From the NCBI GenBank assembly GCA_963773065.1, contig CAVYZN010000006.1, forward strand, positions 1 through 64,000: DNA of 64,000 bases, in the 5' to 3' direction. Below the pieces are notes generated by a model. The model ran no database searches. It was not told the origin of the DNA and saw only the letters and a program-made list of their open reading frames with translations. A program made the position numbers and the translations under genes. Source of the stretch: an uncultured Gammaproteobacteria bacterium (GTDB taxonomy: Bacteria > Pseudomonadota > Gammaproteobacteria > UBA9214). Within the stretch, counting starts at the first letter, position 1, and the number at the start of each line of letters is the position of its first letter. Of the stretch, positions 14,595-61,370 are shown one piece after another.

Positions 14595-14770
14595 ATGGCC
14601 ACGGGAAAGTAAGAAGTGAGAAGTGAAGAGTGAGAAAACACGCTCAGCGGCGATTCAGTACATGAATCACCGCTGCAAGCGTGTTATTCTCACTTCTCAC
14701 TTTCACTTCTTACTTCTCACTCTCACTTCTCACTTCTCATTCTCACTTTTCCGTGTTCTTCCGTGGCCAT
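14595..14770. repeat. ATGGCCACGG-capped inverted heptamer element
   Basis: ATGGCCACGG + (GTRAGAA)n, internal hairpin, (TTCTCAC)n + CCGTGGCCAT between convergent msbA and ilvE. Confidence 0.85.
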
Positions 14771-14773
14771 GCC

Positions 14774-15694
14774 TCAGACCAGCGTCAGCCAGTCCTGGTG
14801 CCGGTCGAGACGGCCATGCACGAGATCAAAGTACAGCGATTGCAGGCGCTGCGTCAGCGGGCCGCGGCTGCCGTGGCCGATGGTGCGGTTATCGACCTCG
14901 CGGATCGGCGTCACCTCGGCGGCCGTACCGGTAAAGAACGCCTCATCGGCCAGATACACCTCATCGCGCGTGATGCGCTTCTCGCGCACCGCGAGCCCCT
15001 CTTCGCCGGCCAGCCGGATGATGGTGTCGCGCGTGATGCCCTCCAGGGCGGAGGTCATATCCGGCGTATAGAGCACGCCGTCGCGCACGATGAAGATGTT
15101 CTCGCCGCTGCCTTCCGCGACGAAGCCGTCCACGTCGAGCAGCATGGCCTCGTCATAGCCGCAGCTCAGGGCCTCGTTCAGGGCCAGCATGGAGTTCATG
15201 TAATTGCCGTTGGCCTTGGCCTTGCACATGGTGATGTTGACGTGATGGCGCGTAAATGAGGAGGTCTTGATGCGTATCCCCTTCTCCATGTTCTCCGCCC
15301 CCAGGTAGGCGCCCCATTCCCAGGCCGCCACGATGGCATGCACCTTGAGATTGTCGGCCCGCAGTCCCATGCCTTCCGCGCCATAAAAGAACAGGGGACG
15401 GATATAGGCCGATTGCAGGCCATTCTCCCTCACCACCGTCCGGTGCGCCGCGTTGATGGTCTCGGGATCGTAGGGCACCGCCATGCGGGTGATATGGGCC
15501 GAGCCGAACAGGCGGCGGGTATGCTGCTGCAGGCGGAAGATCGCCGTACCCTGGTCGGCCTTGTAGGCGCGCACCCCCTCGAACACCCCCATGCCGTAAT
15601 GCAGGGTATGCGTGAGCACATGCGTCTGCGCCTCGCGCCAGGGCACGAGTTTGCCGTCCATCCAGATGACACCGTCACGGTCAGCCATCGACAT
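14774..15694 (-). CDS. ilvE: Branched-chain amino acid aminotransferase
   Basis: LTHTLHYGMGVFEGVRAY, KAKANGNY, EGSGENIF, FFTGTAAEVTP. Confidence 0.96.
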   Translation of the reverse strand: MSMADRDGVIWMDGKLVPWREAQTHVLTHTLHYGMGVFEGVRAYKADQGTAIFRLQQHTRRLFGSAHITRMAVPYDPETINAAHRTVVRENGLQSAYIRPLFFYGAEGMGLRADNLKVHAIVAAWEWGAYLGAENMEKGIRIKTSSFTRHHVNITMCKAKANGNYMNSMLALNEALSCGYDEAMLLDVDGFVAEGSGENIFIVRDGVLYTPDMTSALEGITRDTIIRLAGEEGLAVREKRITRDEVYLADEAFFTGTAAEVTPIREVDNRTIGHGSRGPLTQRLQSLYFDLVHGRLDRHQDWLTLV

Positions 15695-15717
15695 GCTGCT
15701 GTCTCCTGAAAATCATA

Positions 15718-15866
15718 AAGTGAGAAGTGAGAAAGTAAGAAGTGAAATAGCGTGAGTAAAGGTAATTGATGACCCCTCTCGCCTTTCATCGATCACATCT
15801 CACTTCTTACTTCTTCACTTCTTACTTCTTACTTCTTACTTTTTACTTTTCACTTTTCACTTTCAC
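15718..15866. repeat. Inverted heptamer-array element
   Basis: GTGAGAA/GTAAGAA arm 15718-15765 and TTCTTAC/TTTTCAC arm 15793-15866; the latter contains the glnE stop. Confidence 0.85.
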
Positions 15867-18758
15867 AAGGTCCCAGATAGCGGTCCCAGATGCGCGCCAC
15901 GGCCTCCCGGTGCGAGACCAGCTCGTCATTTCCGACCACCGGGGGTTGTTCCTGCAACGCAAGGTGATTGATGCGGCGCCGGATTGCGAAGTAGGCGGCC
16001 GTCAACTGCGTGGCTTCCTCCCCGGAGATCAATCCGGCGCGGGAACATGTTTCCAGCAGCCTGAGGTTGTCGGTATACCTGAGCAGTTCCGGGTGTTCAC
16101 TGGACCAGAGCAAGACGCCCCATTGAACCATAAATTCAACATCAACGATACCGCCGCGGCCCTGCTTGAGATCAAACCGATGCGCATCGGACTTGTCGAG
16201 CTCATGGCGCATGCGCCGGCGCATCTCGCAGACTTCATGGCTCAGTTTCGCTGCTTCCCGCGGGCGGGCGAGCACCCCGGCGCGGATGCGTTCAAACTGG
16301 CGCGCGATATCCGCGTCACCGGCCACCACCCGGGCGCGCACCAGGGCCTGGTTTTCCCAGGTCCAGGCACTTCTGCGCTGGTAATCCGCGAATGCCTCCA
16401 GGCTGCTGACCAGCAGTCCGGAGGCCCCGTTCGGGCGCAGGCGCATGTCCACCTCGTAGAGGATGCCGGCCGAGGTGAAGGTATTCATGATGTGGATGAT
16501 GCGCTGGCTCAAGCGGGTGAAGAACTCGTTGTCGTGCAGCACCCGTGGCCCGGCGGTGTGCTGCTCGTCACCCCTGCTGTCATGCAGGAACACCAGGTCG
16601 AGATCCGAGCCGTAGCCAAGCTCGTAACCGCCCAGCTTGCCATAGCCAAGGATCGCGAAATGGGACTTTAGCCATTTGCCCTGCCACCGGTACCCGGGCG
16701 GGCCGTAACGGCGCACGAGATGGTCCCAAGCCAGCCGCAGTACCCGTTCCAGCACCACCTCCGCGATATCCGTGAGGTGATTGGCGATATCCGCCACCGG
16801 CCGCTGGGAAACGATGTCCGCGGCGGCCACGTGCAGCACGGCGGCCTGCTGGAACTGGCGCAGGCGGTCCATCTGCTGTTCCAGGTCATCGGCCGCGATG
16901 CCGGCGAGGCGTATGTCCAGCACCCCTTCGAGGCCCGCCTTGTCGAGCGGATCATAGAGGCTGCGAGTATCCAGCAGTTCATCCAGCAATATCGGATGCT
17001 GCGCGAGCTGGGAAGCCACCCAGGTGCTGCTGGAACACAAGCGCACCAGTTGGGAGAGTGCCTGGGGGTTCTCGACCAGGAGGGAAAGATAAGTCGTACG
17101 CCCGGCGATGGCTTCCAGGAGATCACCGATGCTTTTCAGGGCCTGCCCGGGATGCGACTGCGTGGCGGCCTCCTTCAGCAGCATGGGCATGAGCTGGTCG
17201 AGGCGCTGGCTCCCCTGCTCCCCGAGAAAACGCAATGCCGGTCCCTCGCGGAAACCATCCAGCCAGCGCAGGATCTCCGCGGCATCCTCGTAACCCGCCC
17301 GGGTCAGTACACCTGGCCGCCTCCTCCTCATCCAGATCGCGGGTCCAGACACCCGCCTGGTCCGGGGTCTTCATCCTGGTTCGCCGCCGTAACCCTCGCG
17401 GCGGGTGCGGCAAACACCTGCTCGAAGTGTCCCTGTACCGCGCGCCGGTGCCCGTCCAGCACACGCGCGAACGGCTCCCAGTCCGCGTAACCCATGGCGT
17501 AAGCCAGCCGCAACCTGCCGAGCTCGTCTTCGGGCAACTCATGCACCTGCTGATCGGCAAAGGCCTGCAGGCGGTTCTCCACGCGCCGCAGGAAGACCAT
17601 ACGCCTCGGCAAGCTGCGCGGTCACCGGCGCGGGCAGATAACCCAGCACCGCCAGGGCATCCAGCACGGCCAGGACACCGCGTTGTTGCAACAGCACCTG
17701 GCGCCCGCCGCGCACCAGCTGAAAGGCCTGCGCAATAAACTCGATCTCGCGGATGCCGCCGGGACCGAGCTTGATATCGTCGCTGCATCGCTTGCGCTCC
17801 ACCTCGCGCGCGATTTGCTCCTTCAGGTTGCGCAGCGACGCAAAGGCGCCGAAGTCGAGGTAACGCCGGTAACACAAAGGGCTTGAGCAGCGTCATGAGG
17901 TCGTTTGCGGCGCGTTGCGGACCGGCGACGGGCCGCGCCTTGATCATGGCATAGCGTTCCCACTCGCGCCCCTGCAATTGGTAATAATCGGCCATGGCGT
18001 CAAAACTGGCGACCAGCGGACCGCTGTCGCCGTAGGGGCGCAGCCGCATGTCGACACGAAACACGAAACCCCGCCCATCGGCATGATCAAGCACGTGGAT
18101 CAGTTGCCGCCCGACCCGCGTGTAGAATTCCTCCGCGCTGAGCACGCGATGCCGCCAGTGCGACTCCTCGTCCGGGTGGGCAAAAATCAGGTCGATGTCG
18201 GAGGAGAAATTGAGCTCTCCTGCCCCCAGCTTCCCCATCCCCAGCACGATCAGCGCGGGTGAGAATTTTTTATCCGGCCCGGCATACTGCCGCACGGCCC
18301 ACTGATTCAACCGCTCAAGTGCGCCGGCGATACAGGCATCGGCCAGCGCCGAGAGGTCGGCGAGTACCGCATCGAGACCGTCCCATCCGGCGAGGTCGCG
18401 CCAGGCAATGCGCACCATCTCGCGCCGGCGAAATTCACGCAAGGCGACACCCAGCGCCGTTTCCTCATCAACACCACGCATGGCCCGACCCAGCTTGCGC
18501 GCATAGTCACCGGCGGAGTAATCCGCCAGCAGGTCACCCGCTGGACAGCAGATCATGCAGCAGCGAGGGATCGCGGATACAGGCGCTGGAGACGAATTCG
18601 CTGCAGGCCCAGACCCGCCGCAGGCTGGCTGCAAAATCGGGATGCCGCGGCGGCGCCAGCCCTGCTTCCGTGGCAGCGGCGGCGTAGGATTCCCAGGCAT
18701 CGTTCAGCGGTTCCCGTAGCGCCGCCGGCAATTCGGTGTGGCGCCGATTGATGGCCAT
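15850..18758 (-). CDS. glnE: Glutamine synthetase adenylyltransferase/deadenylase (multiple frameshifts)
   Basis: Two NTase domains: GMGKLGAGELNFSSDIDLIF and GYGKLGGYELGYGSDLDLVF; VDMRLRP; DIKLGPGGIREIEF. Confidence 0.94.
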
Positions 18759-18870
18759 CGGCGTGTGTGCATGGCTGGGCATAGTGGCCGTTAAGGTAAA
18801 TCTCCTGCGTTGCCGACAGTTCGACGTCACCCGTGATTATATACAAGCCCAGGGGGACTTTATGGAACTA

Positions 18871-19015
18871 AATAGCCACAGGTCGCGTGAGGGCACGACT
18901 GCAGGGATGCACGACTACAGGGATGTAGGAGGTAGGGTAACGCAGGGAGCAGTTACCGAGGAGGTAGGGCAATGCAGGAGCAATTGCCGAGGAAGCCGGA
19001 AGCGACCTGGCTATT
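18871..19015. repeat. Three-layer nested hairpin repeat
   Basis: AATAGCCACAGGTCGC...GCGACCTGGCTATT enclosing a ~47-nt unit that itself encloses a 48-nt paralog. Confidence 0.82.
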
Positions 19016-19035
19016 CATTTTTTTTGTCTCACAGC

Positions 19036-19071
19036 AAAAAAGGCCCCGCCTTGGCAGGCGGGGCCTTTTTT
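19036..19071 (-). terminator. Rho-independent terminator of groESL (bidirectional form)
   Basis: AAAAAA GGCCCCGCC ttggca GGCGGGGCC TTTTTT just after the groEL stop. Confidence 0.88.
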
Positions 19072-19098
19072 ATTACTGCCTTAAGTCGTAAGACCGGC

Positions 19099-20752
<1,654 letters not shown>

Positions 20753-20781
20753 TCAGATTCTGTGATTACCAATCGCTGCGA

Positions 20782-21072
20782 TCAGCCGACGATGACGCCC
20801 ATGATGTCGTCTTCACGCATCACAAGCAGTTCCTGGCCATTGACCTTGACTTCGGTACCGGAGTACTTGCCGAACAGGACCTTGTCACCCACCTTCACAT
20901 CCAGCGGGATGAGATCACCATTATCGAGCCGCTTACCGTTACCAACCGCAATAACTTCTCCACGGATAGGCTTTTCTGCAGCGGAATCAGGAATCACGAT
21001 CCCACCCGGCGAGGTGGATTCTTCTTCCATGCGCTTCAGGACCACGCGATCATGCAAGGGACGTATGTTCAT
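20782..21072 (-). CDS. groES: Co-chaperonin GroES
   Basis: [37 protein letters not shown]. Confidence 0.97.
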
Positions 21073-21134
21073 CTGGACTTCTCCTCAAGTCGTGCCTTTA
21101 CTCAATTTGGACCAAACATGACGAGCACGTATTG

Positions 21135-21161
21135 TTAGCACTCGTCTTTGGTGAGTGCCAA
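21135..21161. promoter_or_regulatory. CIRCE element (HrcA operator)
   Basis: TTAGCACTC-N9-GAGTGCCAA, one mismatch to the CIRCE consensus, 63 bp upstream of groES. Confidence 0.9.
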
Positions 21162-21187
21162 TATAGCAGCTAATGCCACACTGTCAA
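21160..21187 (-). promoter_or_regulatory. Sigma70-type groESL promoter
   Basis: TTGACA-16 bp-TATATT on the minus strand, abutting CIRCE. Confidence 0.7.
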
Positions 21188-21246
21188 GACAATCGTGGCG
21201 TAATTTCGCGGCCAGCGTCCAGTCAAGGCGCCCGCGAATGTTCCCC

Positions 21247-21699
21247 TCACTCGTCCTCGCGGTGGAATTCCCCCTCCAGCGTTCGTGGCCCCCGGCCGGA
21301 GGAAGGTCCGGTGGAGCCGGAGCTGGGAGATGGCGCTGACGGTAATATGCTGCATGGCCCATGATGCCAGCGCACGCCGCGAGGCGGGTATCAGGCAGAT
21401 GAAACCCGCCAGATCGGTGAGGAATCCGGGCGATGAGCAACAACAGGGCGCCGACCAGCAGGATCACCCCTTCCAGCAATTCAACGGCCGGGATCTCGCC
21501 GCGCGCGAGGGTCACTCTGCAGGCTCTGCAGGGTCGCATAACCCTGATGACGCGCCAGCGCGGCGCCTACGGCCGAGGTCAGGATAACCAGCAGAACCGT
21601 CGGCAAGGCGCCGATCCAGCCCCCGACGACGATCAGGAAATAGATTTCCGCCAGGGGGACACCCAGAAACAACAGGAACAACACCGGGAAAGGCGCCAT
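21247..21699 (-). CDS. fxsA: FxsA family membrane protein (frameshifted)
   Basis: LFLLFLGVPLAEIYFLIVVGGWIG..LVILTSAVG..RHQG; GEIPAVELLEG; canonical position between cutA and groES. Confidence 0.85.
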
Positions 21700-21748
21700 C
21701 GAGCGCACCATAACCGAATAGCGGCGAAAGGGGAAATTGCCACTACGG

Positions 21749-21875
21749 GTGAGAAGTGAGAAGTAAAGAAGTAAGAAGTAATGAAGTGATAAGTGAAATA
21801 CAGACTCGGAACATCGTAAACGTGTGCAGACTGTGGTCATTTTCTTCTCACTTCTTACTTCTTACTTTTCACTTT
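21749..21875. repeat. Inverted heptamer-array element
   Basis: GTGAGAA-type arm, ~45-nt spacer, TTCTCAC-type arm in the divergent fxsA/cutA intergenic region. Confidence 0.85.
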
Positions 21876-21904
21876 ATCCCCATCCGTCAGGTATATTCAC
21901 TGAC

Positions 21905-22225
21905 ATGACGAATGATCCGCAGATCGTCCTGTGCACCGTGCCGGATGAAGCCACGGCGCGGCTGATCGCCTCGGCACTGGTAGCGGAACAACTGGCCGCC
22001 TGCGTCAATATCGTCCCGGGCATCACGTCGGTTTATCGCTGGAAAGGCGCCATCGAAACCACGCGGAGTTGCTGTTGATCATCAAGACAACCGCGGCGGT
22101 TTATACCAGCGTCTGCAGAACAGGATCCGCGCCCTGCATCCCTACGAACTTCCCGAGGTCATTGCAGTCACAATTGATCACGGTTTGCCAGACTATCTCG
22201 CATGGATAAAAACTCACTCGAGTGA
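21905..22225 (+). CDS. cutA: Divalent-cation tolerance protein CutA (frameshifted)
   Basis: IVLCTVPDE..LAACVNIVPGITSVYRWKG and HPYELPEVIA in another frame. Confidence 0.9.
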
Positions 22226-24540
22226 AGCCCTGGAACACTCTGAAGCTGCTTGTCGCCCTGCTCGGACTGGTTACGCTCGCCGCCTTTGCGCTTGACTCGT
22301 TGAGCAGGATCTGTTGAAACCGGACCAGGCGTTTCGCTTCTCGGCCGGCATCGAGACCCTCCACGGTGCGGGTCACCTGGGATATCGCCGACGGTTACTA
22401 CCTGTACCGTGACCGCATACGTTTCAGCACCGATACTCCCGGGATTGAACTCGGCGAGGCCGCACTTCCCGCCGGCGAGATCAAGGATGACGAGTTCTTT
22501 GGCAGGCTCACGATATATCGCAAGCAGGCGGTGGTCACCATCCCCTTTACCCGATCGCCCGATGCGCCCGCGCATCCTGAGTCTATCCGCGGTTTCGCAG
22601 GGCTGCGCCGATATCGGCGTATGTTTCCCACCCCATACCCAGGTCGCGGAACTGGATCTGCCGCGCCGTCCTCCGCCGGTCGAACGGCGCCATCGACCGC
22701 ACTGGAAACGCTGGGCGACAAGCTTGGACTGGGCCGGCGGCGAGAAAATTTCTCGAACCGGATGAGGCCTTCCGGGTCAGCGTCACCGCCGAACAACCCG
22801 ACCTCCTGCTGGTCCGCTGGGACATCGCCGACGGCTATTACCTGTACCGTGACAAGCTCAAGGTCGCAGTTGGCCGAAGGCGGGAACGTCAGTCCTCGGT
22901 TCTCCGGTCCTGCCGCCCGGGGAGACGAAGCATGATGAGTTCTTCGGGGACGTGCAGATCTTCCATCAAGAAGCCGAAATGCGCGTGCCGCTGCAACGCA
23001 CCTCGCCAGTGATGCCGCGGACATCACCCTGCAGGTGACCTACCAGGGCTGCGCGGAAGCCGGCATCTGTTATCCCCCGATCAAGAAGACGCTGCCGGTT
23101 ACGCTGGCGGCCGTTGACGCGGACGGCGGCGCGCGGCGAGCGCAGCGCCTGCCGGGGGCGGGCAGAAGGCCGTCCGTGGCCCCGCCCTCAGCCTCCGGCG
23201 TCACTTCAAGGCAGGACGACATCGCGCGCGTCCTTCGGGAAGGCAGCGCGGGCTGGATCGTGCTGTTTTTCTTCGCCGCCGGCATGCTGCTCGCGTTCAC
23301 CGCCTGCATGTACCCGATGATACCGATACTCTCCAGCATCATCGTCGGCCAGGGGGCAGCATCACCACGGCCGGGGCCTTCTCGCTTTCCCTGGTTTATG
23401 TTGAAGCCATGGCGGCGACCTATGCCCTCATCGGCGTGATCTCCGCCCAGGTCGGCGCCGGGGTGCAGGCTTTTTTCCAGAACCCCTGGATACTCACCCT
23501 GTTCGCGCTGATCTTCGTGACGCTGGCGCTCTCCATGTTCGGATTCTTCAACCTGCATCTGCCCGCCTCCTGGCAGGCGAAACTCAGCAAGGCCAGCCAT
23601 CGCCAGAAGGGGCGGGACGCTGTTCGGGGTGGCGGTGATGGGCGTATTGTCGGCCCTGATCGTCGGCCCCTGCGCCGGACCGGTGCTGATCGGCGCCCTG
23701 CTCTATAGCAGCCAGACGGGCGATTACCTCACCGGGGCGCTCGCCATGTTCGCGCTGGGCAATGGCATGGGCGCCCCGCTGCTGGTCATCTGTACCTCGG
23801 GCGGCAAGCTGCTGCCGAAGGCCGGCGCCTGGATGGTAACCGTCAAGGCCGTCTTCGGGGTCGTGCTGCTGGGTGTCGCCATCCTGATGCTGGAGCGCAT
23901 CCTGCCCGGCCCCGTCACGCTCGTACTCTGGGCCCTGCTGCTGATCATCCCGGCCGTCTACATGGGCGCACTGGAGCAGCTCCCGGCCGGCGTATCCGGC
24001 TGGCGCCGCTTCTGGAAGGGTCTGGGTATCGCCATGCTCGTCTACGGCGTGGTCCTGATGCTGGGCGCCGCCACCGGCGCACGCGACCCGTTCAATCCGC
24101 TGCGCAACATCACCTCTGGCATCACCGCCGTGGACGGCGGGAAGCACGCATCGCAACACCTGCCCTTTCAGCGCATCAAGAGCATCGAGGATTTCAATAC
24201 CGCGTTGCAGGAAAGCGCCCGGCTGGGAAAACCGGTGATGCTGGATTTCTACGCCGACTGGTGCACGTACTGCATCAAGATGGAGGACTACACCTTCTCC
24301 GACGACCGGGTCCAAAAGGCGCTGGCCGGTTTGACGCTGCTGCAGGCGGATGTCACCGCCAATGACGCCACGGACCTTGCCCTGCTGAATTACTTCAAAC
24401 TGTTCGCGCCACCCGCCATCCTGTTCTTCGGGGCGGATGGCGGGGAACGGCCCGACTACCGCCTGGTCGGCTATCTCGGCGTGGATGAGTTCCTGGTGCA
24501 CCTGAAGGGCGCGCTGGGGGAAGTGAGAAGTGAGAAGTGA
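22222..24540 (+). CDS. dsbD: Protein-disulfide reductase DsbD with two N-terminal Ig-like domains (frameshifted)
   Basis: [12 protein letters not shown] and QGCA..CxPP each occur twice; [15 protein letters not shown]; LIVGPCAGP; C-terminal [10 protein letters not shown] thioredoxin domain. Confidence 0.9.
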
Positions 24541-24662
24541 GAAGTGAGAAGTGAGAAGTGAGAAGTGAGAAGTGAGAAGTGAGAAGTGAGAAGTGAGAAG
24601 TGAGAAGTGAGAAGTGAGAAGTGAGAAGTGAGAAGTGAGAAGTGAGAAGTGAGAAGTGAGAA
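24523..24662 (+). repeat. Perfect tandem repeat (GTGAGAA)x20
   Basis: 140 bp, 20 exact heptamer copies; forms the left arm of an inverted element whose right arm is 24710-24751. Confidence 0.97.
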
Positions 24663-24748
24663 GCAGGATGATCGCCTGCTCCGGTCAGAAGTCAACTCTT
24701 ATCTTGTAACTTCTCACGTTTTACTTCTTACTTTTTTACTTCTCACTT

Positions 24749-26112
24749 TCATTTAGGCTTGATGTCGAACTTGCGCAGCAGGTCATACATGGTGGGGCGG
24801 CTGATGCCCAGCAGGTCCGCCGCCAGCGACACCTTGCCGCGCACATGGTTCAGGGCGCGCATGATCGCCATGGCGATCGGTGCGGTCACGAATCTCGCGC
24901 AGATTGAACGTCGCCAGTTCCTCCGGGCTGCTGCCGCCAAGTTCCAGGTCACGCGCGCCGATCTGCTGGTGTTCGGCCATGATCACGGCGCGTTTCACGC
25001 GGTTTTCGAGTTCCCGCACATTACCCGGCCAGGCATAGTTCTCGATGGCCGCCATGGCGTCCTTGCTGAACCGGTAGCCCTTCTTCCCCTGCTGCTTGCT
25101 GATCCGTTCCAGGAATACCCTGGCGAGCAGCAGCGCGTCCCCTTCCCGATCGCGCAGCGAGGGAATCGTGATCGATAACTCACTGATCCGGTAATAAAGG
25201 TCATCCCGGAATCCGCCGGAGCGGATCAGTTCATGCAGATCCTTGTGAGTGGCGCAGATCACGCGCACATCGACCGGAATCTCCTTGCGCCCGCCCACCC
25301 GCTCGACGACGCGCTCCTGCAGGAAACGCAGCAGCTTGGCCTGCAACGGCAAGGGCATATCGCCGACCTCATCCAGGAACAGGGCGCCGCCCGCAGGCCG
25401 TTTCGATCTTGCCCGGGGTCTGTTTGGCGGCGCCGGTGAACGCGCCCTTCTCATAGCCGAACAGCTCGCTCTCGAGCAGGGTCTCGGGGATGGCGGCGCA
25501 ATTGATGGCGACGAAACGCTTGTCCCGGCGGCTGCTCAGGCCATGCAGGGATCTCGCCAGCAGTTCCTTGCCGGTACCCGACTCGCCCAGCACCAGCACC
25601 GTGGCATCCGTCGGCGCGACCTTCTCCACCGTCCGGCACACCTGCAACATGGCATCACTGCCCGTAATGACGCCCTCGATGGGCGATTCCATCTGCTTGA
25701 TGCTCAGGCGGCGGTTTTCCTCTTCCAGCTGGTAGAGCTGATAGGCCCGGTTGACGATCAGCTCCAGCATATCGGCGTCAATCGGCTTGTAGAAGAAATC
25801 ATAGGCGCCCATGGCCACCGAGCGGGTTGCATGCTCCCGGTCATTGTTGCCGGTTACCACGATGACCTTGGTGTGGGGCGCCTTGAGGAGAATTTCCTCC
25901 AGCAGCCTAAACCCTTCACTGGTGCCGTCCGCATCCGGCGGCAAACCGAGGTCCAGGGTAACCACGGCGGGCAGGTGCCGCTCAATTTCGGCCAGCGCGG
26001 TTTCCCGGTCGCCGGCAATCAGGACTTCGTAGTTCTCGAAACACCAGCGCAACTGGGTCTGCAGCCCGGGGTCATCTTCAATGACCAGCAATTTCCTTGA
26101 AGTTGTTTCCAT
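24749..26112 (-). CDS. prsR: PEP-CTERM-box sigma54 response regulator (frameshifted)
   Basis: [55 protein letters not shown]-terminal Fis HTH. Confidence 0.9.
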
Positions 26113-28221: not shown

Positions 28222-28239
28222 AAGATCCTACCACACCGC

Positions 28240-31134: not shown

Positions 31135-31301
31135 ATAGCCACGGAATCACACGGAACTACACGGAAGTGCGAAATCAAACTCAGACGCTCAGTTTAAAAC
31201 CGCCACTTCCTCGTTTAGCGCACTCGTGCCCGAGCGGTTTTTCACCCCTCACTTCTTACTTCTCACTTTTTCCGTGTATTTCCGTGTGCTTCCGTGGCCA
31301 T
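31135..31301. repeat. ATRGCCACGG-capped inverted element
   Basis: ATAGCCACGGAATCACACGGAACTACACGGAA ... CTCACTTCTTACTTCTCAC TTTTTCCGTGTATTTCCGTGTGCTTCCGTGGCCAT. Confidence 0.82.
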
Positions 31302-32250: not shown

Positions 32251-32291
32251 TGAATAAGTGAGAAGTAAGAAGTAAAAAGTGAAAAACGTGA
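32251..32291. repeat. Heptamer arm (left) bracketing the four-helix-bundle gene
   Basis: GTGAGAA GTAAGAA GTAAAAA GTGAAAA immediately adjacent to the fcl start codon. Confidence 0.8.
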
Positions 32292-32342
32292 TGGTCTGAT
32301 GATTGACAATTTTTCGGTAATTAATGAAGTGTGAACACAGGC

Positions 32343-32693
32343 TTATTCAATTCCCCTGGATACTTGTTGCCTTAATCCAATGATCAATGCTCTCACATGA
32401 TTGATGAAGGACAATAAATCCGTTACTTCTGCATACCTGAGTCTTGAAGCTATAATCAGTTGTGTTTCCAACTCCGCCAATGACCCCAGAGATATGCCTA
32501 GAAAATTACAGAACTCCTTCTTTCCATTTCTGGCAGCACCTTCACTCAAATTGCTTGGCACCGATACAGCAGCCCGGCGAACTTGAGATGTCAATCCGTA
32601 TAATTCATTCCCCGGAAACCCTGCACTCACTTTATAGACTTCTTCAACCAACAGTATTGCCTGTTTCCAGGCTTGCAGATCCTTGTGATTCAT
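32343..32693 (-). CDS. Four-helix-bundle protein (23S rRNA IVP / Avd-like, TIGR02436-type)
   Basis: HKDLQAWK..YKVSAGFP..ELYGLTSQVRRAAVSVPSNLSEGAAR..EF..FL.IS.GSLAELETQL; RBS GGAGGGG; AT-richer than its neighbours. Confidence 0.93.
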   Translation of the reverse strand: MNHKDLQAWKQAILLVEEVYKVSAGFPGNELYGLTSQVRRAAVSVPSNLSEGAARNGKKEFCNFLGISLGSLAELETQLIIASRLRYAEVTDLLSFINHVRALIIGLRQQVSRGIE

Positions 32694-32730
32694 AACCCCT
32701 CCCTGGGTTCACGTTTCACCTGCCACATCA

Positions 32731-32797
32731 TTACTCCTCACTCCTCACTTCTCACTTCTACTTCTCACTTCTTACTTCTTACTTTTTATTCTTACTC
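32731..32797. repeat. Heptamer arm (right) bracketing the four-helix-bundle gene
   Basis: About nine TCCTCAC/TTCTCAC/TTCTTAC units, containing the gmd stop codon. Confidence 0.85.
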
Positions 32798-40194: not shown

Positions 40195-41230
40195 TTAAAA
40201 CTTTAACCAGTCAAATGTGGTCGAATTGTCATTTTTGATTATTTTCGATATCAGACTAAATGACGAGTTACCTTGCCAGTAAAGGTATTTAGTCATCGAT
40301 AATAACCACATATCAGCTACGCTATCGTAGAATAATTGTTCCTTTTGATCTTCCTCAAAATACCAATAAGCCCATTTGTGTATTCCTCCATGATCAATTT
40401 TTGGAATACGCTTCTCAAAGAACAGCATTCTGTCTTGGAAGGTGTTTTTTAGTTTATCAATTAAATCGATATTGTCTGAGCACAAAAATAGTTTTTACCT
40501 GTGAGATCTTCTCCAACTCAGATTTCAATTTTTTAATCAATCTATCTAATTGAGATTTCGGTTTCTTATCCGTATATCTGATATGAACGCCAATAACATT
40601 AGAAAAGTCATTCTCGGTAGCATACTGCTTAAACTGCTGATAGTAGATGTCTTTCAGTTGAACATAATTCAGTAGATTAGAAATTCGGCATAAAGGTCTA
40701 AAATCAGCAAATACGACAATATCCTGATCAAGCCATTTTGGAAGTGCAGCACCTAATGGAAAATTGTCTCCTTTAAGGATATCCCGAACCGCTCCCCAAT
40801 ATCCCTTTTTGTCATTAACTCTTTGGAAAGACTGCAATCCAACCACGTAGCCAAGTTTATAGCGGAATATCAAACCCATCCCAACTTTATACGGAGGGTA
40901 GTTGGCAATCGAAGGCGTACATGCATAATAATTTTTTAATAGTGCATTTGTAATATCTTCTTTATGAAGTATTCGCGGAAATGTAGAAGCCCCATTATCT
41001 ATCGCTTTTAAAATTTCATCGGGCGCATCAACATATGCTACATTTTTTAATTCAAAATATTTAAAGAAAATATTAACTCCAGTTGGGCCAAACATCCCAT
41101 CGCACCAATCCAGATATATGGTTCGTTGCGTTTTTTTTGCATAGGAAATCGCTTTCATCAAGGAAATGAAGCGATTTCCTATACCGCCAACTCCTTTTAC
41201 TATTAGATATTTTTCAGCTTCATCTTTCAT
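40195..41230 (-). CDS. NodZ-like / fucosyltransferase-fold protein (frameshift ~40480)
   Basis: YLIVKGVGGIGNR, YLDWCDG, IGVHIRYTD, CSDN, ADMWLLS..GNSSFS. Confidence 0.7.
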
Positions 41231-41261
41231 TTTTACTCTTCTTACTCGCACATTACATGTG

Positions 41262-41763
41262 CAGTCTTCTGCTCGATGCGCCGGGTCTCGTCCAGGGCCC
41301 TGGAGGCGTGGGCGATCACATGGAACTTGTCGAAGGTGATCCGGGCATTGGGAAGACTCTCGGCGCAGCCCTTGATGAAGGCCGGCGACATGTCGATGCT
41401 GACCGAGTCGATGGCATCAATGTCGGCACCATGGGCCCGGAGATCCTCGGCGAGCCGCCGGATCGCCTCGGCCTCACGGCCTTCGGTGACGAACAGCACC
41501 GCGCGGCGCTCGGCGTCGGCGGCCAGGGTGACATAGTCGTGGCCGCGGGCTCGCGAGGTCTCGTCGATGGCCAGGCGGGTGACCTCGGAGAAGTCGGCCT
41601 CGGCCAGCGCGAGATCGACATAGCGCCCGCAAATCGCCGCCACCCGATGCCAGCTCTCGCCGGTGAGACGTGCCACCGCCGCAAACGGCATCTCGCGCGC
41701 CAACATCAGCACAAGTGCCTCAAAGAGCAGCGTGAAGCCCGAGAGCTTCCCGGTCCAGCCCGG
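41262..41763 (-). mobile_element. ISL3-family transposase internal fragment
   Basis: AREMPFAAVAR, LAIDETSRARGHDYVT, SIDMSPAFIKG, FDKFHVI; GC-rich island without termini. Confidence 0.88.
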
Positions 41764-46418: not shown

Positions 46419-46465
46419 TTTATTGGTTACATAAGCCTCTGCTACTACCTGCTAGCCTCTGGAAA

Positions 46466-50023: not shown

Positions 50024-50069
50024 CCCACTGACTCATTCATGCAGCGCAAACAAGTTCAGTGGGCGCCGG

Positions 50070-52364: not shown

Positions 52365-52413
52365 ATGATTACTCTAAAATTCAGTGGTGTCATAGGATAA
52401 ATACCTAATCACT

Positions 52414-53703: not shown

Positions 53704-53737
53704 AACACCAGATTCACCATGGGACGGATTCTGTAGT

Positions 53738-54469: not shown

Positions 54470-54502
54470 ATACCTATGCCAAGGTAATCAGATTGTAATC
54501 TG

Positions 54503-55633
54503 CTACACAGCTACTGATACACCTGTTAGCTTCGCGTATACACCGGCATAGCCGTCAATCATATTCTGTTTTGTGAACCTGGCCGCATTAGCGATAGCAT
54601 CTTCACCGCCGCCACCCCCTTCAACAATAGACTGCGCAATTCGCCTAGCGGCTTCAGTAGGGTTTTTCGGATCAATGTACACAGCACAGCTTCCCCCGGT
54701 CTCCGTCATTGGGGGGCGTACCGAGGTGTACACAGGGCATCCGCAGGCATGCGCCTCTATAACAGGCCATCCAAAGCCTTCGTAGAGTGACGGGAAAAGC
54801 AAACCTCTTGCCATGGAATATAGCGCTCGCAACTCCTCATTGCCGATGTCGGTAAGTTCGATTACGCGTTCTGTCATATTATGCATACTGATATAACCGA
54901 GCATTTCTTCCGTCCATGGCTTGCCAACAAGAACGAGACTTAGATGCGATGTCTCGGGGTACTGCAGTAATTCCAGGAAGATTCGCAATACCCCCATGCG
55001 ATTCTTGTACCAGTGGTTACCCCCGACATGCAGCAAGAATTCGCTATCAGGCATCACTCCGCACTCCGACAAGATATGAATCGCCTGCCTGTAATTCATG
55101 GGTGAATAAGGATAATTCAGACCATTGTATATAACGAAGACTTGCGCAGGATTTATTCCAACCAGTCTCAGCACATCATTCCTGGTCGCCTCCGACACAC
55201 ACGCTATATATGGAGATTTTCTCAGTCCACGTAATATCATCCGCTGATAAATCCGCCCACTCCACCCCGTCATATTCTCTGGATAATCACCCAGTGCGCT
55301 GCGAATAGCGAGTAAATCATGGCATGTAACCAAGGTCGGCTTTGCACTCACCGTAGTGGCATAGACTGCGTTTGAATGATCACAGATATGCACGACATCG
55401 GCCCACTTGACCAGTCTCCGCAAGTTATGAGGGAACAACAGAAGCTTGTCTATATATCCTAGCCATTTTCTCAGCGGCGAGTGATCAGACACAAAACGTG
55501 AAAACACTACCTCAGGCTGAACTACCCGCACATCAATGCCGCGCTCCGCCAGACCCTTTTCAAGAACTTGGCAAAAGCGCGACATACTTTCTTGTTTATC
55601 AGCCGCATAATTCCCTACAAGGAGAACCTTCAT
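54503..55633 (-). CDS. GT4 glycosyltransferase
   Basis: HICDHSNAVY, VTCHDLLA, FPSLYEGFGWPVIEAHACG. Confidence 0.9.
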   Translation of the reverse strand: MKVLLVGNYAADKQESMSRFCQVLEKGLAERGIDVRVVQPEVVFSRFVSDHSPLRKWLGYIDKLLLFPHNLRRLVKWADVVHICDHSNAVYATTVSAKPTLVTCHDLLAIRSALGDYPENMTGWSGRIYQRMILRGLRKSPYIACVSEATRNDVLRLVGINPAQVFVIYNGLNYPYSPMNYRQAIHILSECGVMPDSEFLLHVGGNHWYKNRMGVLRIFLELLQYPETSHLSLVLVGKPWTEEMLGYISMHNMTERVIELTDIGNEELRALYSMARGLLFPSLYEGFGWPVIEAHACGCPVYTSVRPPMTETGGSCAVYIDPKNPTEAARRIAQSIVEGGGGGEDAIANAARFTKQNMIDGYAGVYAKLTGVSVAV

Positions 55634-55719
55634 AAATTAGACTCACTACTGTAACGCGAGGAGCCCGCCGATATTGCCCAGTGTGTATTCGCCGCCTCTA
55701 TGCGTTCGCAAAAGCCCTT

Positions 55720-56877
55720 TCACGCGAGGGAATTGCGGTATATTTCTACTAACTGTTGCACGTATCCGTCCCATCCGTATAACGATTGCATCTTCATTGC
55801 ACCATCCTTTCCCATACGGGCTGCTTTTTCACGATCTTTGTAAAGCACCTCCAGTTTCTCCGCTATGGTTTCCGGTGACCTTATAGGAACCACATAGCCT
55901 GTTACGTCATCCTCGATAAGTTCCGCCGCACCGTTGTTGGTTGTTGTAATAACAGGCAGTCCGCTTGCCATGGCTTCGCCGCAAACTAGGCTAAACCCGT
56001 CCTCCAGTGTCGGTAGAACGAACACAGTCGACTCATTTAAATAATGGTTAAGCCTTTCATTCGGCACGAACGGTATATGCGTGAACAGTCCATCGTAAGA
56101 CTTCATCATCCCATTCATTTCGGGATCCAACCGTCCAATCAGGAGAAGTTCTCCGTCCCCAATAGCCAGACGTTTCCATGCCTCAAGCAAATCCACTTGC
56201 CCTTTTCGGATACTGTTTGCTGCAACACAGATCACACGGAATTTCTTTCCTTCACCACGCGTGGTATTTTCTTTCATCGAAAAGCGAGACAAATTAACCC
56301 CAAAGGGGAGCACATCGATCTTACCCTCGTCAAATCCTTTCTCGACAAATGTACGCTTCACAAAATCCGAAGCCACAAGAAACCGATCACACATCTCGAA
56401 TTCTTCAAGCATTCGTCTCTGCGCCGGGGATCTCTCCAGTCTCTTCCGTATCCTTAGTCGCTCGTATTCCGAATTAAGAACTTCATTCTGGAAATCAGGG
56501 TGAGCATTTACCGGTTCGCCGATAACGAGAGAGCCGTCGGAATGGGCGCGGCGTATCATGCGTCTTCCACCTCCATGGAGCATGAGATGCAGAAGGTCAC
56601 ACGGTGACCAAAAGGCAAGCGACGCGGACTCCCATAATTGCCTATATAGCGGACTTAACGCTTCCAGACCAGGCACCCATGACATACGCAAATGTGCATG
56701 GAGTAGATATTCTTTTATCCATACATTTACCAACTTCTCCGCCGGGATGCCCAACGCTTTTTCACCCGTGGAAATCCTATGCGCATAATAAAAGCGATTC
56801 AGAACACCTAGCCGATACAGATAGGGCACGACGTTGTGATAATGAAACCGACCACTCACCGCCAGATTAACTCTCAT
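55720..56877 (-). CDS. GT4 glycosyltransferase
   Basis: PFGVNLSRF, RKG, FVLPTLEDGFSLVCGEAMASGLPVI. Confidence 0.9.
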   Translation of the reverse strand: MRVNLAVSGRFHYHNVVPYLYRLGVLNRFYYAHRISTGEKALGIPAEKLVNVWIKEYLLHAHLRMSWVPGLEALSPLYRQLWESASLAFWSPCDLLHLMLHGGGRRMIRRAHSDGSLVIGEPVNAHPDFQNEVLNSEYERLRIRKRLERSPAQRRMLEEFEMCDRFLVASDFVKRTFVEKGFDEGKIDVLPFGVNLSRFSMKENTTRGEGKKFRVICVAANSIRKGQVDLLEAWKRLAIGDGELLLIGRLDPEMNGMMKSYDGLFTHIPFVPNERLNHYLNESTVFVLPTLEDGFSLVCGEAMASGLPVITTTNNGAAELIEDDVTGYVVPIRSPETIAEKLEVLYKDREKAARMGKDGAMKMQSLYGWDGYVQQLVEIYRNSLA

Positions 56878-58337
56878 TGTTGATTTTCTCGCACGCCAAA
56901 ACGACAAAGATTGATTGAGGCCATAAGCAAACCCGCAAACAGCCAAGCGTAGCCGCAGATTGTGCCATGACCCGAAATCTGCCCGTAAAAGATCACTACA
57001 CCCACATAGCCAAATAACAATACAGGCATGGGGTTACCAGAACGCCGGGCCGCCCACAGTGACTTCGTTCCCAGCACAATCGTCAGCATCACCCGAAACA
57101 ATATAAATAACACGGCAAGCATGGGGCCCATGTCGACAAAATGCCTCGACCAGTCTGTTTCGGCAAGACGAAGCGGTATCGTGCCTGCGACAGTAACGCC
57201 CAATATGGTACCCGCATTGCCTGCTAAACCCATGCCATAACCGAAGAGTGGTACCTGTCCGACAAGACGGAGAAAATCATATACCTCATAGAGCGCACGA
57301 CCGAAGACACCGAAGTGCCCAAACATGCGACTTTCGGATGCAACGCCTTCAAACCACCGTGCTATAAATGCAGCGAATGCCTCTGGATATACCACGGGAT
57401 ATAAGGTCACCACACATATAACAAGCAATATAGGCAGCACTATCGCCCGGCGGGAAACCCTCCCTCTCAATACTACCCCAGCAACCAAACAGCTTAGAAC
57501 AACAATACCCGAATGGATAAACATCCCGCGGTTAATACTAAAGGCCAGGCAAGTTAGGGTCGCAACCGCACCAAAAGCAAGCATGATATTTGAAATAGGT
57601 CTCTGTTTAGCCGGAACAAGCCAGAGAACCAGAGCCATGCATAAACTGCTAGCAACTAGATGCCATGGGCCCACTGCTGCAGTGAATGTCCCATTTGGCC
57701 GAATATGCCCGAGTGAACCACGTAGTCCCCTAAATTGCAAAGACTCATCACTTGCTATACCGGCATTAATAATCGAGTCTGGCGACGAAGCGAATTGTAC
57801 TGCAATAAGAAATGCCATTGGAATGATAACAATGAGCGTCTGCCTGAATAGGCGATAGATATCTTCCCATCTAAATTGTTCCCCGATCAGGAATGCGAGT
57901 GGTATGTATAGAAAATAGTTTCTCCATCCATAGACCGCTAATAACATCATTATTCTGCCACTACTCCCCAGCAACAACTGAATAACTATCCATACAATTG
58001 CCAGCAAGGAAATCAGATATGCAAAAAGCAGCAACGGCCTCGATCTAGGCCACATTCCATTGGCTAGTGCCACAAAATATATATAGAGGACAAAGGGGTC
58101 TCTGATGAAGTACAGGTACTGGGCATATTGCGGCCACACCCATTTACGCAGTACGCCTTCGAAGATCAATAGCCAATAGACTAGAAACACGAGCCTGACG
58201 AGGCGGCGGCGAACGCGCTCTTTAGGCGAGATACCTTCTCTTGGCTTTGACGTTACAGCGAGTGTATTCGGCTTAACAGCCGATACATAACTACTTCTCT
58301 TTTGCCTTTCCAATACTGCGATGTGCTTGTTTGTCAT
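56874..58337 (-). CDS. Putative polysaccharide polymerase (Wzy-like membrane protein)
   Basis: LLIFEGVLRKW, RPNGTF, FGYGMG; 10-12 TM segments; located in the EPS cluster. Confidence 0.65.
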   Translation of the reverse strand: MTNKHIAVLERQKRSSYVSAVKPNTLAVTSKPREGISPKERVRRRLVRLVFLVYWLLIFEGVLRKWVWPQYAQYLYFIRDPFVLYIYFVALANGMWPRSRPLLLFAYLISLLAIVWIVIQLLLGSSGRIMMLLAVYGWRNYFLYIPLAFLIGEQFRWEDIYRLFRQTLIVIIPMAFLIAVQFASSPDSIINAGIASDESLQFRGLRGSLGHIRPNGTFTAAVGPWHLVASSLCMALVLWLVPAKQRPISNIMLAFGAVATLTCLAFSINRGMFIHSGIVVLSCLVAGVVLRGRVSRRAIVLPILLVICVVTLYPVVYPEAFAAFIARWFEGVASESRMFGHFGVFGRALYEVYDFLRLVGQVPLFGYGMGLAGNAGTILGVTVAGTIPLRLAETDWSRHFVDMGPMLAVLFILFRVMLTIVLGTKSLWAARRSGNPMPVLLFGYVGVVIFYGQISGHGTICGYAWLFAGLLMASINLCRFGVRENQQ

Positions 58338-58702
58338 GACTACATGCCATTCTTATTTGAATACCCGCCCATGGCACGGGTACTCAACCTGACTACTTCT
58401 AAGGTTTAAATCGAGGTGTGAAACCAATTGCATTACGCTGCACATCCGTGACAGCAGGGTACAGAGTAATCTGCCGATGAAGTAGCGACTAGTACAATGA
58501 CTAATACAATCACGACTTGATCCTGTCGATTCCTATACGTTCAGTGCCCTGATATAACTACTGAGCACACCCGAAACCGGACGCATGTCCATTGCGGAGA
58601 ACGCTTTTCGTATTGGCAAAGGGTTGCCGGGTTTTCGGCAATTTCACTTTTTCACGCTTCGTGTGCTATGCAAGTAACAAACATAACCACGTCGATGAAT
58701 CG

Positions 58703-59641
58703 CTAAGTCCAACGGGCTCCCAGTGAATCAAGCAGAGACTCCAGTCCTTTATCGATGCCAACCACTGATTCCCAACTCAATATCTCCCTGGCCAGGTCAA
58801 CTGATGATGATGAATTCCTGATGTCACCAGGGCGTTCGCTCTCATACCTTGGCTTGAATTCTGTATTGGTGATTCGGCACATGGAGGCGAGCAATCCGTT
58901 GAGTGATATTTCCCGACCCGTTGCGATATTGATAATCCTGCCAGCGGCCCTGTCTACGGTAGCGGCCTTTATATTCGCCGCCACCACATCCGATACAAAC
59001 ACGAAATCCCGGGTCTGCCCGCCATCCCCGTAGATGACCGGCTGCTCGCCCTTCTTCAGCCGGTCCGCGAAGATCGAAATGACACCGGAATACGGTGAAC
59101 CCGGATCCTGCCGCGGGCCATAGACATTGAAATAGCGCAGGCACACGGTTTCGAGTCCGTGCAGGTGAGTATACATCCGGCAGGCGTATTCCGAGGCGAG
59201 TTTGTCGACGGCGTACGGTGACAGGGGTTTGAGGGGCATATCTTCGCGTTTCGGCAGTTCCGGGAGATCGCCGTAGACCGCCGCGGAGGATGCGATTACC
59301 ACTCGCCTGGCGCCCTGCCGGCGCGCGGCCTCAAGCACATTCAATGTGCCCTGGTAGTTGGTGCGCTGGCTGCCCAGCGGGTCCTGGATGGTTTTGGGAA
59401 CCGAGGCGATGGCCGCTTCGTGGAATACGAGTTCAACGTCTTTCATTGCCTTGTTGACGACGTCGAAGCTGCCGACATCTCCGGTAATGATTTCGAGGTC
59501 GGCGGATTCAGGAAGGTTCTCCCGTTTTCCGGTGGAGTAGTCATCGAGTACGCGTACCCGGTACCCATCGGCCAGCAGGCGGTCGACGATGTGGGATCCG
59601 ATGAATCCGGCGCCGCCGGTGACCAGGGCTAATGTTTTCAT
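58703..59641 (-). CDS. NAD-dependent UDP-hexose/HexNAc 4-epimerase family protein
   Basis: [49 protein letters not shown]. Confidence 0.9.
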   Translation of the reverse strand: MKTLALVTGGAGFIGSHIVDRLLADGYRVRVLDDYSTGKRENLPESADLEIITGDVGSFDVVNKAMKDVELVFHEAAIASVPKTIQDPLGSQRTNYQGTLNVLEAARRQGARRVVIASSAAVYGDLPELPKREDMPLKPLSPYAVDKLASEYACRMYTHLHGLETVCLRYFNVYGPRQDPGSPYSGVISIFADRLKKGEQPVIYGDGGQTRDFVFVSDVVAANIKAATVDRAAGRIINIATGREISLNGLLASMCRITNTEFKPRYESERPGDIRNSSSSVDLAREILSWESVVGIDKGLESLLDSLGARWT

Positions 59642-59736
59642 ATGAGTCCGTGAGTTAGATGTTACAGACAATCAGTTTGCAATTGAGTTGGGGAGTTAAA
59701 TACTACCTTTTGGTCTTCAAAGTCACTGATTGTTAT

Positions 59737-59794
59737 CCCCTCACCCTAACCCTTTTATGCCCGTTGTCGTTTGGGTGCTCCCGGTGGGAGAGGG
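59737..59794. repeat. CCCTCACCCTAACCCT...CTCCC...GGGAGAGGG palindromic repeat with 24-nt insert
   Basis: Familiar intergenic hairpin motif interrupted by TTTATGCCCGTTGTCGTTTGGGTG. Confidence 0.6.
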
Positions 59795-59846
59795 TATATT
59801 TGGATACCGCTTTGCAGGGAGTGGTGACTATCCGGGCCGTCCGGAC

Positions 59847-61148
59847 CTACCGCCCCACGCAGGTGTAATCGAACCCAAGGCTCGTCAGGTGCGCCTTCTC
59901 GTAGACGTTGCGCAGATCGATGAAGGCGTTGCCCTGCATGAGATTCTTCAGCCGGTCAAAATCCAGACCCCGGTACTCATTCCATTCCGTCATCAGGATA
60001 ACGGCATCGGCGCCGGTTATCGCTTCATAGACGTCATTATAATAGCTGACGTCTCCGGGCAGCAGCTTCTTCGCCTCCTCCATGCCCTGCGGGTCATGGG
60101 CATGGATCACGGCTCCCTTGTCGATCAGGTTGGGAAGAATCGCGAGCACGGGTGCATCGCGCATGTCATCGGTTTCGGGCTTGAAGGTCAGGCCGAGTAC
60201 GGCAATCGTCTTGCCTGAGACGCTGCCGCCCAGCGCCTTGCGTATTTTCTTTATCATCAGCGCCTTTTGCGCCGCATTGACTTCCACCGCGGCCTCGACG
60301 ATACGGCAGGGCGTGCCATGTTCCTGGGCGATGCGAATCAGGGCGGTGGTGTCCTTGGGAAAACAGGAGCCGCCATAGCCGGGACCGGCGTGCAGGAATT
60401 TGTTGCCGATGCGTTTGTCCATCCCCATGCCCTTGGCGACCGCATGCACGTCCGCCCCGACGTTTTCGCACAGGTTGGCGATCTCGTTGATGAAGCTGAT
60501 CTTGGTGGCCAGAAAGGCATTCGATGCATACTTGATCAGTTCCGCGCTTTCCAGGTCGGTGACCATGATCGGCGCCTCGATCAGGTTGAGGGGGCGGTAG
60601 AGCTCGCGCAACAGGTTTTCGGCCCGCTCGCTTTCCACGCCCAATACCACCCGGTCGGGGCGCATGAAGTCGCCGATCGCCGCGCCCTCGCGCAGGAATT
60701 CCGGGTTGGAGGCGACATCGAAGTCGGCCGCCGGATTTTCCTTGCGAACGATGCGGGCGACATGGCGCGCGGTTCCCACCGGCACGGTGGATTTATCCAC
60801 GATGACGGTATAACCGGACAGGTGCCTCGCTATCTGCTTGGCCGCCTCATACACATACGCCAGATCCGCATAGCCGTCGCCGCGGCGCGTGGGTGTGCCG
60901 ACCGCGATAAACACCAGGTCGGCTGCTCCGACCGAATCACACGCGGTAGTGAACTTCAAGCGACCCGCCGCCACATTACGCGCCACGAGGCTTTCGAGAC
61001 CCGGCTCGTAGATGGGCATCTCGCCCGCATTCAGGCGATCGATCTTGGTTTGATCGAGATCGATGCAGTTCACATTGGCGCCGAACTCGGAAAAACAGGC
61101 GCCTGATACCAGGCCAACATAGCCGGAACCGATCATGACGACGTTCAT
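59847..61148 (-). CDS. ugd: UDP-glucose 6-dehydrogenase
   Basis: IGSGYVGL, FIAVGTP, KSTVPVGT, SNPEFLREG, GYGGSCFPKD. Confidence 0.94.
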   Translation of the reverse strand: MNVVMIGSGYVGLVSGACFSEFGANVNCIDLDQTKIDRLNAGEMPIYEPGLESLVARNVAAGRLKFTTACDSVGAADLVFIAVGTPTRRGDGYADLAYVYEAAKQIARHLSGYTVIVDKSTVPVGTARHVARIVRKENPAADFDVASNPEFLREGAAIGDFMRPDRVVLGVESERAENLLRELYRPLNLIEAPIMVTDLESAELIKYASNAFLATKISFINEIANLCENVGADVHAVAKGMGMDKRIGNKFLHAGPGYGGSCFPKDTTALIRIAQEHGTPCRIVEAAVEVNAAQKALMIKKIRKALGGSVSGKTIAVLGLTFKPETDDMRDAPVLAILPNLIDKGAVIHAHDPQGMEEAKKLLPGDVSYYNDVYEAITGADAVILMTEWNEYRGLDFDRLKNLMQGNAFIDLRNVYEKAHLTSLGFDYTCVGR

Positions 61149-61184
61149 TATTTGTTCACCTTTTCCTGCATGTTACATTTATTA

Positions 61185-61370
61185 ATGGCCACGGAAACAT
61201 CCGGAAAGTAAAAAGTGAGAAGTGAAAGTAAAGTGAAAGGTAATAGGAAAGAAGCGTGTGTGATACGGAGCATGCGCCGTATTCAACCTGCGTATCAAGC
61301 ACCCGTTCTGCTTATCACTTTTTACTTCTCACTTTTTACTTTCCGTGGGTTCCGTGGATTCCGTGGCCAT
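61185..61370. repeat. ATGGCCACGG-capped inverted heptamer element
   Basis: ATGGCCACGGAA..GTAAAAAGTGAGAAGTGAAA ... TCACTTTTTACTTCTCACTTTTTAC TTTCCGTGGGTTCCGTGGATTCCGTGGCCAT. Confidence 0.85.

Follow-up and report, generated by a model that had tools for sequence, protein, structure and literature searches.

The window analysed here, a stretch of 64,000 nucleotides of contig CAVYZN010000006.1 from an uncultured gammaproteobacterium (UBA9214; assembly GCA_963773065.1), carries at its gene junctions pairs of inverted arrays made of a degenerate heptamer, and at one junction, between gmd and fcl, the two arrays enclose a gene for a four-helix-bundle protein. An initial annotation had proposed at least eight such sites of a single design, the gene-bearing copy being a loaded form and the others empty forms of one cassette. 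As listed below, a purine arm of RRGTRAR units followed by its reverse-complement pyrimidine arm was found at seven of these eight sites.

32256..32797 (minus strand): loaded cassette at the gmd/fcl junction, with an arm, a ribosome-binding site, the four-helix-bundle gene and the reverse-complement arm
32343..32693 (minus strand): four-helix-bundle gene (PF05635/TIGR02436), 116 amino acids, on the same strand as gmd and fcl
14595..14770: empty heptamer pair inside outer arms of the CACGGAA type, between the convergent msbA-like (+) and ilvE (−) genes
15718..15866: empty heptamer pair at the glnE/ilvE junction; in this assembly the glnE stop codon comes from the arm
21747..21875: empty heptamer pair upstream of dsbD and of a gene that we take to be cutA-like, probably between divergent genes
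24521..24751: empty heptamer pair between the convergent dsbD (+) and prsR (−) genes, its spacer common to a copy at C16:7295 of the same genome
28246..28531: empty heptamer pair at the prsT/prsK junction; the prsT stop codon is supplied by the arm
31135..31301: bracket of the CACGGAA type (the family linked to GxxExxY genes) that includes a lone pyrimidine heptamer arm
61185..61370: at the rmlB/ugd junction, an empty heptamer pair, again inside outer arms of the CACGGAA type
5277..5419: empty CGCAAAG-type bracket (a third family) at the hldE/hldD junction, absent from the initial list
7928..8072: empty CGCAAAG-type bracket after a lipid A acyltransferase gene, also absent from that list

The seven paired sites contain 4, 5, 5, 20, 9, 4 and 5 purine units, counts that are approximate and may be off because of the many frameshifts in the assembly. 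The gap between the two arrays is 51, 53, 48, 34, 166 and 60 bp at the empty sites and 446 bp at the loaded one. The eighth site (31135-31301) has no purine heptamer unit and four pyrimidine units, which lie inside CACGGAA/TTCCGTG arms; it is a composite of two repeat families and not a heptamer pair. Outer arms of the CACGGAA type are also present at the sites beginning at 14595 and 61185. Every site of the window sits at a gene boundary, as had been claimed, with the qualification that several arms overlap the stop codon of the neighbouring gene and supply it (msbA-like, glnE, dsbD, prsT and gmd); in the loaded cassette, it is the first heptamer unit that overlaps the gmd stop. Convergent genes flank two of the sites, and divergent genes probably flank a third. 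The genes found split by frameshifts between positions 15850 and 31021 (glnE, groEL, dsbD, prsR, prsK and prsT) are consistent with assembly indel errors and not with pseudogenes. A search of the window against Rfam gave no match. Just past the window end, a lone pyrimidine heptamer arm with a TTCCGTG arm forms a ninth heptamer site (C6:64955-65000).

We then looked at the product of the enclosed gene. The open reading frame (ORF) at 32343-32693 scored 105.9 bits against TIGR02436 (cut-off 24) and 114.7 bits against PF05635 (cut-off 33.8), which confirms that one spacer is a complete four-helix-bundle gene, and it is the sole TIGR02436 match in its own genome. Its GC content is 43%, compared with 59-60% for gmd and fcl. 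The predicted structure of the 116-residue protein (pLDDT 96.3) superimposed on 2GSC, a five-chain structure, with a TM score of 0.89 and 45% identity, and also matched 2RLD; with profile scores above the curated cut-offs and a fold like that of 2GSC, the protein is a member of the PF05635/TIGR02436 family. The homology between PF05635 and Avd, reported in the accessible part of PMC10053308, was recovered at the structural level, since the model has the same four-helix fold as Avd (4DWL; TM 0.78, rmsd 1.8, E 0.17). It differs from Avd by an identity of only 12%, by the absence of any match to the bAvd Pfam family and by the absence of a reverse transcriptase match in the window. No recognised catalytic fold was detected in the protein, and no transposase is present within the cassette.

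The arms were then counted in the whole genome (G000), a 3.84-Mb assembly with 6.3% contamination. With a minimum of three units per arm, 26 purine arms and 23 pyrimidine arms were counted, and each of two block shuffles gave only one of either kind; arm length ranged from 3 to 24 units. Neighbouring arms no more than 200 bp apart were in all 15 cases arranged purine then pyrimidine, and when the distance was extended to 700 bp, 18 pairs had this order and 2 the reverse; the purine arm thus comes first as a rule, and not always as initially stated. Of the 49 arms, 13 were outside a strict pair, some of them having degenerate partners. Lone arms were found 3' of stop codons. For the 16 pairs (of 18) whose flanks could be placed with confidence, the flanking genes are co-directional in 11 cases and convergent in 5. 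Heptamer sites are concentrated in the window, a hotspot, since 9 of the 30 fall in the first 65 kb of the contig (0.5 expected). Empty units have also been copied: a second copy of the prsR-dsbD spacer (24663), 93% identical over 46 bp, lies at another gene junction, C16:7295. An assembly artefact was rejected because the arms recur in independent genomes, including the same empty element at prsR-dsbD in genome G003.

The association of this protein family with arrays, which the initial annotation had suggested, extends across phyla. We surveyed the best-scoring 80 of at least 602 genome loci, 2 of which were dropped for short flanks, and called an inverted flank at a score of at least 24. 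Inverted flanks were present at 58 of 78 four-helix-bundle loci, compared with 5/390 displaced windows, 3/60 other ORFs and 11/386 mismatched pairs. These arms have a period of 7 or 8; among periodic flanks, the best lag was 7 for 41 of the 50 that lie upstream and for 46 of the 56 that lie downstream. The words vary among loci, yet 48 seven-mers could be aligned on a common GT(R)(A) core (G in 47, T in 41, a purine in 36, A in 32), with an alignment score of −307 compared with −345±4 for shuffled pools. Homologues at gmd-fcl that are 71-79% identical in protein have differing words and this same core. The neighbouring gene is on the strand of the four-helix-bundle gene at 61 of 67 loci upstream and 58 of 67 downstream. 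A stop codon is present in 35 of 48 words (49% expected), an excess explained by the GT(R)(A) core; since the other 13 words have none, we rejected stop codons as a selected feature. Arrays begin near the upstream stop codon in 36 of 45 cases, partly because the gaps are short. Word similarity increases with protein identity (r 0.30, permutation p 0.0002, 37 loci), a correlation that we do not count as co-evolution because related loci share both kinship and GC content. The family itself is large, with 3,520 PF05635 relatives in one limited search. A gmd-fcl junction with a four-helix-bundle cassette also occurs in distant taxa, namely a Bacteroidetes bin and Melioribacteraceae (L067, L117, L114), and in Mariprofundus (same group of loci) fcl lies downstream of the cassette.

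The loaded, empty and absent alleles expected at orthologous junctions were found among relatives. For prsR-dsbD (21 complete junctions among 31 loci), one and the same empty heptamer pair is present in the window and in G003, and G028 and G030 have a loaded form, with a gene inside heptamer arms whose product is 75% and 72% identical to the window protein, respectively; the window relative of these genes sits elsewhere, at gmd-fcl. In the other genomes, the junction shows CACGGAA arms, hairpins of other kinds or a short gap (52-144 bp) that has no heptamer arms. For gmd-fcl (11 complete junctions among 15 loci), we observed one four-helix-bundle cassette (that of the window), four GxxExxY genes in CACGGAA arms, two empty CACGGAA pairs and, in four genomes, a bare junction of 36-128 bp without arms. 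At glnE-ilvE, 10 of 28 junctions have an empty heptamer pair, 3 are bare (35-72 bp) and none is loaded, and two congeneric genomes have an armless ilvE-msbA junction of 48-51 bp. Spacers can also be inverted: at glnE-ilvE, the spacers of G071 and G022 are reverse complements of each other (45/50 identical). In G009, a member of the same bacterial family, the four-helix-bundle gene lies within the 23S rRNA gene (L005, C62:600-1030) between short TATCAG/CTGATA heptamer-like arms, whose word differs from that of the window; the proposed link to 23S intervening sequences (IVS) is borne out by this copy. In sequencing run X1, a contig carries 204 bases of gmd (1 difference), then 16 other letters and the start of fcl; with about 19 bases on the fcl side and a depth of 3.4, it was not counted as a bare allele of a near-identical strain, and arm-to-arm joints in X1 and X3 probably belong to loci other than this one. 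The four-helix-bundle gene is covered by two short RNA contigs at depth 2, without ends.

The arm words are specific to the enclosed gene. In the bacterial family to which the window genome belongs, 29 GxxExxY loci were compared (of 30 fetched, one partial hit being excluded): arms of the CGCAAAG type occur at 15 and arms of the CACGGAA type at 10, which makes 25 of 29, and heptamer arms occur at none. In the same family, heptamer arms flank each of the three four-helix-bundle genes that are intact and lie outside rRNA; no arms are visible at a broken one at a contig end. CGCAAAG-type arms also flank GxxExxY genes elsewhere in the own genome, which contains 35 CGCAAAG pairs; at least 12 of these are near-identical empty units of about 76 bp, and such units are a recently spread non-autonomous family. 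Near-identical CGCAAAG units, often with common outer flanks, are found for example at C11:71763, C16:142584, C26:5986, C26:28250 and C27:102177 of G000. Many sites are nested composites of two repeat families. At two G000 junctions (C10:14600-15140 and C9:44770-45245), which we presume to be ribF-ileS, a different GxxExxY gene lies in CGCAAAG-type arms, one of the two being broken; the presence of both junctions in one assembly possibly reflects strain mixing, given the contamination.

How do these cassettes compare with known systems? In the accessible part of PMC4990558, one 23S IVS of the S23p type has heptamers of strain-variable copy number before its ORF and is cut by RNase III at the first heptamer repeat; the heptamers are treated there as a feature of that single IVS. 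The likeness concerns the protein family, the terminal inverted repeats and the tandem heptamers upstream of the ORF. In the window, too, terminal inverted repeats give rise to a long stem around the ORF (RNA fold z of −5.4 for the cassette at 32256..32797, and −5.1 for the empty site at 15718..15866). In contrast to the IVS, the window copies are between protein-coding genes (gmd and fcl flank the loaded one) and have many empty sisters; only the G009 copy is inside an rRNA gene, and it is exactly the ORF-bearing 23S IVS form. According to bioRxiv 2024.02.27.582315, such ORFs are scattered among 16S and 23S insertions.

As for REPIN/RAYT, whose flavours are tied to RAYT genes and which show nested insertions (PMC3116915, accessible part), the likeness is in a gene lying within its own inverted repeats, many gene-less extragenic inverted doublets, gene-tied flavours and nesting. 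The window differs by arms that are variable-length tandem arrays of non-palindromic 7-mers instead of short single palindromes, and by a flanked gene that encodes an all-helical Avd-like PF05635 protein and not an HUH (Y1) tyrosine transposase; no excision was seen. The window copies belong neither to REPIN/RAYT nor to the 23S IVS. Nor are they miniature inverted-repeat transposable elements or classical insertion sequences, since arm length varies, no duplication was seen by eye at the alleles compared and the cassette has no transposase, or a diversity-generating retroelement (DGR), since no match to the reverse transcriptase family RVT_1 is present on the contig and the neighbours of the cassette are gmd and fcl.

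Heptamer repeats are in excess in prokaryotes, and 70-75 inverted GGGAATC pairs, reported with no tie to mobile elements, occur in Xanthomonas (PMC4692102); similar arrays exist in Geobacter (PMC2700814) and Beggiatoaceae (PMC4679880). Like ours, they are intergenic, often in inverted pairs, near sense-strand stop codons and mainly between aligned genes; they differ by another word and were read as G-quadruplex or regulator sites. The accessible parts of these three papers do not mention the four-helix-bundle gene. We found no description of gene-plus-arm cassettes with empty copies at protein-gene junctions, in a search that left most subscription journals and supplements outside. Parts of the system are on record, and heptamers beside the gene were already known, from the partial text of PMC4990558, in one rRNA IVS. 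The system is real, widespread and polymorphic, and the best reading of its organisation is a mobile cassette arranged like REPIN/RAYT, the ORF-bearing intervening sequence of rRNA being one particular case of it.

We lean slightly towards considering the sites as loaded and empty copies of a cassette that is copied as DNA into gene junctions and whose Avd-like protein is predicted to bind the arms. That the cassette is mobile appears highly probable. The chances that the four-helix-bundle protein binds its cognate word seem even or a little better; this part is argued by analogy with the Avd pentamer, which, in the consulted part of bioRxiv 2023.10.23.563531, binds a stem-loop with flipped-out U/G bases held between protomers. 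In such a mechanism, slippage and conversion between arms would lengthen or shorten the arms and alter the three free letters of the word, and the GT(R)(A) core would be retained, probably as the part that the protein reads. What would make the cassette tolerable is its position at or just past a stop codon, its reading in the operon direction and the stop codons that its outer arm usually holds; in 23S rRNA, RNase III would remove the same stem, as published for another species. As for the empty copies, they would be non-autonomous derivatives outlasting the gene. Since the protein has no recognised catalytic fold, strand transfer would most likely take place by host recombination between arms or through a nuclease acting in trans.

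Several observations weigh against this cassette reading. The 80 surveyed loci lean to the subfamily of the query, and 20 of the 78 genes are under the inverted-flank threshold. No catalytic partner was found for the cassette. The genome has 10 Y1 transposase matches; 7 Y1 loci were inspected, one of which has a heptamer arm on one side. It also has five RVT_1 matches, four of them strong, all away from the contig of the window. The alleles replace junction sequence with no clean insertion, and neither defined ends nor target-site duplications were seen by eye. Unrelated hairpins occupy the same junctions, which may be hotspots for any hairpin. The tie between empty forms and the gene, claimed at the outset, is upheld by the same-junction alleles and weakened by two results: 5 of 8 arm-rich genomes (at least 20 pattern matches) have no TIGR02436 match (G001-G004 and G022, 88-100% complete), and no gene or leader remnant was detected by tblastn or blastn in any masked multi-arm site of the own genome. 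The latter result led us to reject an origin of the empty copies by internal deletion. At C17:85678-86560 of the genome, a Y1 (RAYT-like) transposase gene that has terminal inverted repeats of its own was noted directly after one-sided heptamer and CACGGAA arms.

Such points could also mean that the empty pairs are simple repeats born by slippage and kept as hairpins useful to the host, as two-way terminators or mRNA stabilisers, with the gene hitch-hiking without recognition. The persistence of arms without the gene in 5 of 8 arm-rich genomes, the spacers without gene remnant, the lone arms after stop codons, the 5 of 16 pairs between convergent genes, the many hairpin types at the same junctions and the Xanthomonas pairs without a mobile-element link (accessible part of PMC4692102) all agree with this explanation. 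It leaves unexplained the period-7/8 arms on four-helix-bundle genes across phyla, the other arms on GxxExxY genes at the same junctions, the presence of one spacer at two loci and the common GT(R)(A) core, and we consider it unlikely. If the arms were instead selected for pairing in the transcript, RNase III would cut the stem and split or trim the operon mRNA, as in the 23S IVS. The long stems (both z values above), the RNase III cut at the first heptamer of one 23S IVS (PMC4990558, in part) and the cassette within the G009 23S rRNA fit this idea, as does the 5' arm of 11 co-directional sites of the own genome, which has G at the variable position in 84 of 99 cases compared with 34 of 52 in the 3' arm read on the other strand. 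This bias rests largely on two long perfect arrays, and the sense-strand fold is the more stable in only 6 of the 11 sites. At the 58 loci, sense-strand G-U wobbles (94) were not above A-C mismatches (112), with 18 loci against 20 (p 0.87). As a test of RNA-level selection, the G-U strand bias was negative in the 58 loci and weak and confounded in the 11 sites. Moreover, cleavage alone does not account for copies at new loci, although it may still occur as a side effect; a selected RNA-level function is in our opinion quite improbable.

Movement could also proceed through RNA, an Avd-like pentamer binding the arm-bounded RNA and recruiting in trans a reverse transcriptase whose cDNA would recombine into junctions. 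In its favour, the fold resembles that of Avd, which is required by the DGR reverse transcriptase (bioRxiv 2023.10.23.563531, in part), and the genome contains the RVT_1 matches mentioned above. However, such enzymes are common, being present in 3 of 14 control genomes, the window contains none of the five matches, no RNA-strand pairing bias was observed, identity to Avd is 12% and the inverted G071/G022 spacer fits DNA recombination, all of which make this route very unlikely. Returning to the DNA-copied cassette, a broader and rather doubtful extension is that there are two families of selfish cassettes, both widespread and undescribed, one headed by the four-helix-bundle genes and the other by the GxxExxY genes, and that in each of them the protein reads a tandem word of its own. 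A ring-shaped Avd-like pentamer would bind one GU(R)A unit per subunit and drive the copying of loaded and empty forms, and this might account for the prokaryotic heptamer excess, for the origin of ORF-bearing rRNA IVS and possibly for that of the DGR Avd.

PF05635 is a very large family whose function is not known, and intergenic heptamer repeats lack an agreed cause. If the sites are cassettes, each protein should prefer the word flanking its own gene, which offers a direct test for both puzzles, and the ORF-bearing rRNA intervening sequence becomes a copy of this cassette that has settled in rRNA. Specificity controls are built in, as the two gene families differ in their arm words at the same junctions.

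Two further features were noted. Another multicopy intergenic motif, CAGGGATG/CATCCCTG with GGAGCAATTGCC, is present at 18893-18993 of the window and at C9:178330-178500 and C9:132600-132720 of G000; it lies near groEL and inside bracket-element spacers. Finally, the exopolysaccharide cluster of the window contains a fragment of an ISL3-family transposase (40457-41712).

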